The position numbers and the translations under genes were made by a program. The notes below the pieces were generated by a model, which was given only the letters and a program-made list of their open reading frames with translations, had not been told where the DNA came from and ran no database searches. 64,000 nt of DNA. Source: Anolis carolinensis. Lineage: Eukaryota. The DNA lies in the NCBI RefSeq assembly GCF_035594765.1, contig NC_085843.1:224727971-224791970 (forward strand), written 5' to 3'. Positions 1,672-2,322 of this stretch are shown here, one piece after another (the first letter of the stretch is position 1; each line of letters starts with the position of its first letter).

Positions 1672-2322
1672 GTGTGGGGAAATGACAAGGTCCTTTAGTC
1701 CATTGGAACTTGACAACAAGGATGGGAAACAAACTAGATTTTTGGCAAACAAGACTTGATACGAGGCAACAAGAAGCAAGAAGCAAGAACAAGGTCCGTG
1801 GCGAGGTCCGGGGAACAAGGCAGGCTTGGAACTAGAACAAGGTCCGTGGCAAGGTCCTGGAAACAAGGAACTGGAGTAGCGTAGTCCACACACGATCTCA
1901 CTCCTGAAGCTGACGAATTGACTCCGCAAGGATTTCCTTGCAGTAAAACACCTATATAGGATCTCGTTTTCCCGCCAAGGAACACTTTCCCTGGGGAACA
2001 AGAAGTGAAACCCAAACTGTGTCCAGATGCATGACTCCTTAAGATTTCCCAAGGGAAACAGGTTTAATCAGCTAATTGTCTGGCAGCGATTCTGGCGCTT
2101 CGGCGCTTCGCCTCCCTAGCGCCTCTATCTCTATTATAATTATCCTTACGAGAGAACGGGGGAGAATTCTGCCCAAGGCTTGTTTGGCTGACTTCTTGAG
2201 GGCAAACATCCTGCAGGTGCAGGGGCTCCGATTCTGGCTGAATCGGTGGGAAACCCAAGTTTTCCTCTTCGTCTGCCACAATAGTACTAGGAATGGGACT
2301 ACATGGCCCATGAGACATCACA
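1672..2322 (-). repeat. 5' LTR of the gypsy element (U3 plus part of R; 3' end truncated)
   Basis: TG start at 2322, TATA-like TATATAG near 1952-1958, two ~34-bp direct repeats (1787-1820, 1835-1868). No AATAAA, CA end or PBS before the gag remnant. Confidence 0.85.
2064..2318 (-). CDS. putative LTR(U3)-encoded 84-aa microprotein with acidic N-half and KRRSARIA motif
   Basis: ATG at LTR base 5. MSHGPCSPIPSTIVADEEENLGF...REAKRRSARIAARQLAD*. Stops ~105 bp before the TATA box. Expression not shown. Confidence 0.5.
   Translation of the reverse strand: MSHGPCSPIPSTIVADEEENLGFPPIQPESEPLHLQDVCPQEVSQTSLGQNSPPFSRKDNYNRDRGAREAKRRSARIAARQLAD

Follow-up and report, generated by a model that had tools for sequence, protein, structure and literature searches.

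The 84-codon open frame that begins at the fifth base of a gypsy-type long terminal repeat (LTR) in Anolis carolinensis is very probably the 5'-LTR copy of the C-terminal tail of the element's own integrase, as seen through sister gene models. The last part of this tail carries a basic motif, RRSARIAA. Our main reading, to which we give a probability of about one half, is that the integrase is read into the U3 region of the LTR and that RRS[A/L]RIAA is a predicted anchor for the acidic patch of the nucleosome. Nucleosome tethering as part of the integrase would be the leading candidate for the function of the tail.

The features were read in a window of 64,000 nucleotides, which is the whole stretch of DNA that was analysed (Table 1). 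The gypsy copy found there is an internally deleted element, since its LTR is joined to half of a gag zinc knuckle at 1671/1670 and the sister contigs of all four runs diverge at this point, differing from the window copy on both sides. A sister gene model, P0008, continues past the break point of the window LTR at 1671. The other end of the LTR, which abuts a LINE-like fragment, starts with TG; the ATG of the open frame is thereby LTR base 5, and as the TATA-like box comes after the stop of this frame, the frame lies in U3. The LINE-like fragment, which we take to be L2-like, had no match in Pfam.

Table 1 Features of the window, with position, strand and basis of each call.
Feature	Position	Strand	Remarks
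pol frame: protease, reverse transcriptase (RT), start of RNase H	1..1539	-	open up to the window edge
gag remnant, second half of zinc knuckle to gag stop	1530..1670	-	translation; remaining gag deleted
5' LTR	1671..2322	-	TG at 2322; 3' end lost to internal deletion at 1671/1670
TATA-like box	1953..1958	-	3' of the ORF stop, the ORF thus being in U3; start of transcription inferred
84-codon frame, very probably the integrase's C-terminal tail as copied into the 5' LTR	2064..2318	-	translation and homology
RRSARIAA, HMGN/Dot5-like basic motif, residues 72-79	2082..2105	-	predicted acidic-patch anchor
ADEEENLGF, conserved acidic motif, residues 15-23	2250..2276	-	tail alignment; not canonical FxGF
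LINE-like fragment, insertion site of the gypsy element	2323..2951	-	multi-copy in reads
LTR-like element of another family	~13122-13815	+	U3 acidic frame, stop-broken
Solo LTR, 1119 bases, 5-base target duplication	45804-46922	+	ATG at base 5

A preliminary description of this DNA had reported an 84-residue ORF from LTR base 5 with ADEEENLGF and KRRSARIAAR, and all of this was read again in the sequence, KRRSARIAAR covering residues 71-80 (nucleotides 2108-2079). It had also linked the LTR to an open gypsy pol. This holds for the protease, RT and RNase H part, which is open from 1539 to the edge and whose order fits protease-RT-RNase H, but the gag side is deleted and an in-frame stop (1542-1540) precedes the pol frame. 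The integrase was seen in the sister models P0031 and P0206, and the C-terminal chromodomain on the integrase is likewise a feature of sister models, the integrase of the window copy itself lying beyond the window, as does its 3' LTR, to the left. Elsewhere, the window contains an assembly gap of 183 N (11991-12173) and a presumably Tc1/mariner-like element (37557-39136) that is bounded by long terminal inverted repeats and whose transposase-like frame is broken.

The frame starts with an ATG, and the chance of so long an open frame from a given ATG is ~0.02. A search for longer homologues of the peptide gave seven proteins, all of them (7/7) labelled Anolis carolinensis. In four of the seven, a chromodomain, a stretch encoded by the purine tract and the peptide follow one another in one frame. 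The other three are chimeric models in which the match begins exactly at the LTR start, the pattern that LTR insertions would give. The window peptide is 95% identical (80/84) to residues 422-505 of P0028, the end of an Anolis gypsy integrase model, and the window pol is 94% identical (336/357) to P0206, in which the order is RT-RNase H-integrase-SH3-chromodomain-tail.

We then compared 64 family-side proteins, made up of cluster members (in the two largest clusters, 15 of 33 and 15 of 17 were listed) and of proteins from a region search. A chromodomain is carried by 48 of them, and in 36 of these 48 the frame crosses the polypurine tract and goes on as a full tail, a share that overstates intactness because the sister proteins are gene models retrieved partly through similarity to the tail itself, which favours open tails. 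As for the remaining 12, four stop within the tail, one has an internal deletion, four end at or before the tract, two shift frame there and one diverges there. The tails of the subfamilies are 84, 86, 91 and 96 residues long, and the alignment places these differences in in-frame gaps. In reverse transcription the 5' LTR receives its U3 from the 3' LTR, which explains why an apparent ORF stands upstream of the promoter.

The preliminary description had taken the ORF for a free-standing U3 microprotein, a view that gives way to the integrase tail of the sister models. No stand-alone relative was found in a search of near-length proteins (46-147 residues), weak evidence as searches go. The peptide matched no Pfam family at E values up to 10, gave one chance match only in the PDB (E = 1), had no usable match in the atlas searches and had no relatives among metagenome or viral contigs. 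It is very unlikely that the frame is also translated by itself, from the ATG of a spliced or read-in RNA, to give a free 84-residue protein with a trans-acting role on chromatin. Such a protein would agree with the retention of Met1 in 36/36 tails, with the host-side gene models P0003 and P0005, which end in the tail, and with the solo LTR, which likewise has an ATG at base 5, followed by an acidic ORF of 137 residues. However, the ATG overlaps the att end of the LTR, the 5' copy stands upstream of the TATA-like box, no near-length homologue was found, and the fused form accounts for the conservation alone.

The gene models P0003, P0011-P0013, P0005 and P0015 comprise host models ending in the LTR tail (an ATP13A5-like ATPase and LOC107983085) and an integrase model that is named calmodulin-lysine N-methyltransferase. 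The host models with an LTR tail and the misnamed integrase model are probably annotation artefacts, and read-in transcripts may be an alternative source of the former.

With the frame read as an integrase tail, its basic end can be compared among sister copies. When the peptide was shuffled 200,000 times, RRSxR[ILV] came up in 135 cases. In the sister tails, RRS[A/L]RI stands at the same aligned position in 33/36, R72, R73 and S74 are each kept in 35/36, R76 and I77 are invariant (36/36), and position 75 is Ala in 20/36 and Leu in 16/36. One fused LTR copy, P0004, lacks the anchor arginine. The preliminary description had called the longer string KRRSARIAA HMGN-like, and only its core stands. 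The residue before RRS in the 36 sisters is N in 18, S in 16, T in one and Q in one, with K in none, and at base 2106 a different base, coding for Asn, makes up ~90-95% of the contig depth in 4/4 runs.

This same base is also the sole reason why the 8-base repeat CGAAGCGC is perfect in the window copy, and the aligned tails show no insertion at the repeat. The preliminary description had considered that the motif could stem from a tandem duplication at this site, confined to the one copy. The perfect 8-base repeat is what would speak for such a chance origin, which is nevertheless scarcely credible and is refuted by the sister copies: they carry RRS[A/L]RI (33/36) without an indel, and the repeat reflects one point change. 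The motif is thus independent of a duplication.

The core keeps the residues through which known motifs contact the nucleosome. HMGN2 contacts the acidic patch via R23 and R26 of its RRSAR sequence, and modelled phosphorylation of S24 would stop its binding (PMC12487698). The yeast protein Dot5 has RRSARIAT, with R6, R7 and R10 required for nucleosome binding, and the motif of the tardigrade protein Dsup is RRSSRLTS (PMC13347269). The equivalents of HMGN2 R23, S24 and R26 are kept in 35/36, 35/36 and 36/36 lizard tails, respectively. RRSARIAA agrees with Dot5 RRSARIAT at 7/8 positions and with the HMGN consensus RRSARLSA at 6/8, from which it therefore departs. Membership of the peptide in the HMGN family was rejected, as it has no Pfam match and is fused to an integrase.

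To describe conservation, the family was divided into eight subfamilies, defined as clusters at 85% identity. Between these, identity averages 94% for the integrase body and 61% for the tail. It reaches 0.90 in the segment of the basic motif, with 0.40 and 0.48 in its flanks; a permutation gave P = 0.002 for this motif segment, which had been named beforehand, and 0.10 when any window was allowed. Tail residues 1-8 are conserved equally to the basic motif. The mean BLOSUM62 score of substitutions in the motif is -0.16, slightly above a baseline of -0.47 to -0.73 and thus mildly conservative. The Ala/Leu difference at position 75 corresponds to ~3 switches on a tree of the 36 tails, at least two of them forced by well-supported branches, a count to which recombination could contribute. 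Of the five read variants listed in the ORF, three are silent, where the baseline would be a fraction of 0.22-0.28 (the listing covers 40 of 139 rows). The three listed indels (3/3) fall outside the ORF, and three single contigs have skips inside it that would break the frame. As judged from these alignments, the RRS[A/L]RIAA core is under selective conservation.

Conserved blocks in an LTR might also be DNA elements of U3, such as the att end or enhancer sites, with the frame a tolerated read-through of no peptide function. The first eight codons share bases with the LTR end and match the motif in conservation, and the 5' att motif given for Sushi, TGTYANR (PMC3601003), already fixes part of the ATG. 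The change of frame at the tract in P0219 and P0221 and the three contigs with frame-breaking skips would suit this explanation as well. We consider it distinctly unlikely, since the length differences among subfamilies are in frame, a change between Ala and Leu requires two or more base substitutions in a block that is fixed elsewhere, and the listed variants described above are silent in 3/5 cases (again 40 of 139 rows listed) with the three listed indels outside the ORF.

The tail contains a further conserved block near its start. Residues 16-19 are four acidic residues in 35/36 tails, N20 and F23 are kept in 36/36 and G22 in 34/36, position 21 is L or M, and the conservation of the acidic-motif window is 0.85. 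The preliminary description had seen here a degenerate acidic-xGF motif. The FxGF motif binds the IBD of LEDGF in proteins such as JIL-1, MLL1 and IWS1 (PMC6877644). An LEDGF-type identity of DEEEN[L/M]GF was rejected because all 36 tails have Asn at the position of the first Phe. No paper on FxGF in retrotransposon integrases was among the literature matches listed (20 of 280 and 15 of 5,261). DEEEN[L/M]GF is probably a second short motif, with a putative role in partner binding.

The chromodomain that precedes the tail in the sister models has the aromatic cage F/W/F, which aligns to Y/W/F of HP1 in 35/36 models (one is outside the pattern) and corresponds to the group I pattern. This pattern has been tied to methylated H3K9 (PMC3059260, PMC3605345). 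AlphaFold2, run on P0002 with an alignment of 42 sequences, gave pLDDT values below 50 for residues 217-287 and a helix at residues 289-315 that covers the motif (pLDDT ~67-76). For binding in the HMGN-like mode, the predicted helix is either neutral or mildly unfavourable, and it fits a nuclear localization or DNA-binding role as well.

From these elements, the following mechanism can be proposed. In the sister gene models Pol is a single frame, RT-RNase H-integrase-SH3-chromodomain-linker-tail, that crosses the polypurine tract into the U3 of the 3' LTR. The copy in the 5' LTR is passive, as it stands upstream of the promoter and would be absent from the RNA of the element. The chromodomain, with its three aromatic cage positions kept, is predicted to read methylated H3K9. 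The ~70 residues between chromodomain and basic motif, predicted to be disordered, could serve as a flexible linker. The motif would contact the H2A-H2B acidic patch with its second and third arginines and the Ser between them, in the manner of HMGN2 R23, S24 and R26. Such a two-point grip on the nucleosome would keep the integration complex on chromatin and bias insertion.

The step in which the basic motif works on the acidic patch is, on sequence grounds, evenly poised. Its main rival accepts the integrase tail and holds that the basic end is a nuclear localization signal (NLS) or a non-specific DNA-binding helix, the likeness to HMGN being incidental. A helix is indeed predicted over the motif, the last 34 residues have a net charge of +6, integrases of a worm lizard and a viper (P0040 and P0041) have acidic-then-basic tails without RRSxR, and titles cited in PMC3605345 point to a C-terminal NLS in the Ty1 integrase. 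Nevertheless, Ser, Ile and Ala are conserved along with the arginines, adjacent basic positions are free to vary (mean of columns 58-71, 0.40), and the R-R-S-x-R-I-A-A pattern agrees with acidic-patch motifs that have been tested. We regard this rival as unlikely, and an acidic-patch anchor remains our preferred reading of the motif.

The motif is not clade-wide. RRSxR after the chromodomain was found in 0/146 representative relatives (first 250 tail residues), these being the chromodomain-ended members of a set of 150 top-ranking representatives at 50% identity (149 of them new), with many tails belonging to chimeric models. An integrase query against the metagenome gave 80 distant loci, whose best segments are 35-50% identical and which serve as controls only. 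RRSxR was present in 1/59 of the chromodomain-ended loci, and in 47/59 the tail extends less than 50 residues past the chromodomain. The one case is at L018:3700-3860, where a distant chromovirus has an integrase end with RRSSRL, of the Dsup type, just before the purine tract.

Four relatives (P0040, P0041, P0056 and P0074) have tails that are acidic and then basic. P0040 from Rhineura and P0041 from Vipera read through a similar DSV junction into tails lacking RRSxR. P0056 and P0074 are chromovirus integrases whose tails exceed 200 residues, contain an acidic FxGF (strict or near-strict) and are basic at the end, where both have LLCWKR. A profile built from the 36 tails and the window peptide gave no significant match to the tails of P0040, P0041, P0051, P0056 and P0074.

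Two further LTRs in the window were compared with the tail. The LTR-like element of another family, for which no clear target duplication was seen, contains RRRSARLAEK (13354-13383), with a TATA-like box (13438) shortly downstream, a likeness that we count in favour of the acidic-patch reading. It scored -3.5 bits against the profile of the 36 tails, which indicates no detectable homology. Two matches to RRS[AL]R[IL]A were found in the six frames of the window, and matches in 0/40 shuffles; as the pattern was written from the first occurrence, only the second is informative. The solo LTR contains an intact acidic ORF (45808-46221) with SDEDSFEGF, a good match to the LEDGF-type FxGF. This ORF had 0 matches among the 230 proteins compared and no usable atlas match, and neither LTR has detectable homology to the 84-residue tail. 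By these comparisons, the two LTRs and the tails of P0040, P0041, P0051, P0056 and P0074 share motifs or composition with the tail without detectable homology to it. A wider idea would be that U3 in lizard chromoviruses is a coding cassette for putative chromatin-binding motifs, this family combining a chromodomain for methylated H3K9 with an HMGN-type anchor and other LTRs having independently come to carry RRSARL or FxGF. We offer it tentatively, as possible but doubtful.

Gag of foamy virus and proteins of herpesviruses are already known to tether by way of the acidic patch. Our search, which was confined to the open-access literature (subscription journals and Repbase notes being outside its scope), yielded no description of such tethering by the integrase of a retrotransposon. 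If the motif binds, an LTR-encoded integrase tail would have a defined chromatin contact, which was lacking for the plant CR motifs in a 2011 survey, and mobile elements would join the group of HMGN, Dsup and Dot5. If the cassette idea is true, integration targeting would evolve by the swapping of LTR motifs that mimic those of the host. Whether the motif binds or not, when an ORF starts at base 5 of a lizard gypsy LTR, one should first ask whether it is a Pol tail and only then label it a microprotein.

Among known systems, group A of the plant CRM elements, in which the CR motif is encoded in the 3' LTR, has the closest layout (PMC3059260, PMC3605345). As in these elements, the Pol frame of the lizard family enters the 3' LTR, in 36/48 models and with the LTR start set by the junction in the window. 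In CRM group A, however, the CR motif replaces the chromodomain, whereas the lizard element keeps a chromodomain of group I type upstream of the tract. The lizard element also differs in its vertebrate host and in the HMGN-like motif contributed by its LTR; the likeness to the CR motif that is drawn here is one of layout. In the 2011 survey the CR motif still had no identified partner (PMC3059260, PMC3605345). The Sushi-type chromoviruses of vertebrates and fungi (Ty3/gypsy) have the same order of protease-RT-RNase H-integrase-SH3-chromodomain, and a short read-through is common in them, whereas the lizard family has an LTR-encoded tail of 84-96 residues with two conserved motifs.

For the acidic block, an acidic run followed by GF is common to the lizard tail and the FxGF motifs that bind the LEDGF IBD, the difference being Asn in place of the first Phe. 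For the basic block, HMGN, Dsup and Dot5 share with the lizard tail the RRSxR core with its contact Arg, Ser and Arg. The lizard likeness is limited to an eight-residue motif that stands at the C-terminus of an integrase and has Leu at its fourth position in 16/36 tails. In terms of function, the Gag protein of prototype foamy virus (PFV) through its CBS, KSHV LANA and hCMV IE1 each use an arginine anchor to tether a mobile genome. PFV Gag is the closest of the three, and loss of its chromatin binding shifts integration sites (PMC9040877). In these proteins the motifs have other sequences and are located on Gag or on herpesvirus proteins, whereas the lizard motif is of the HMGN type and would act from the integrase.
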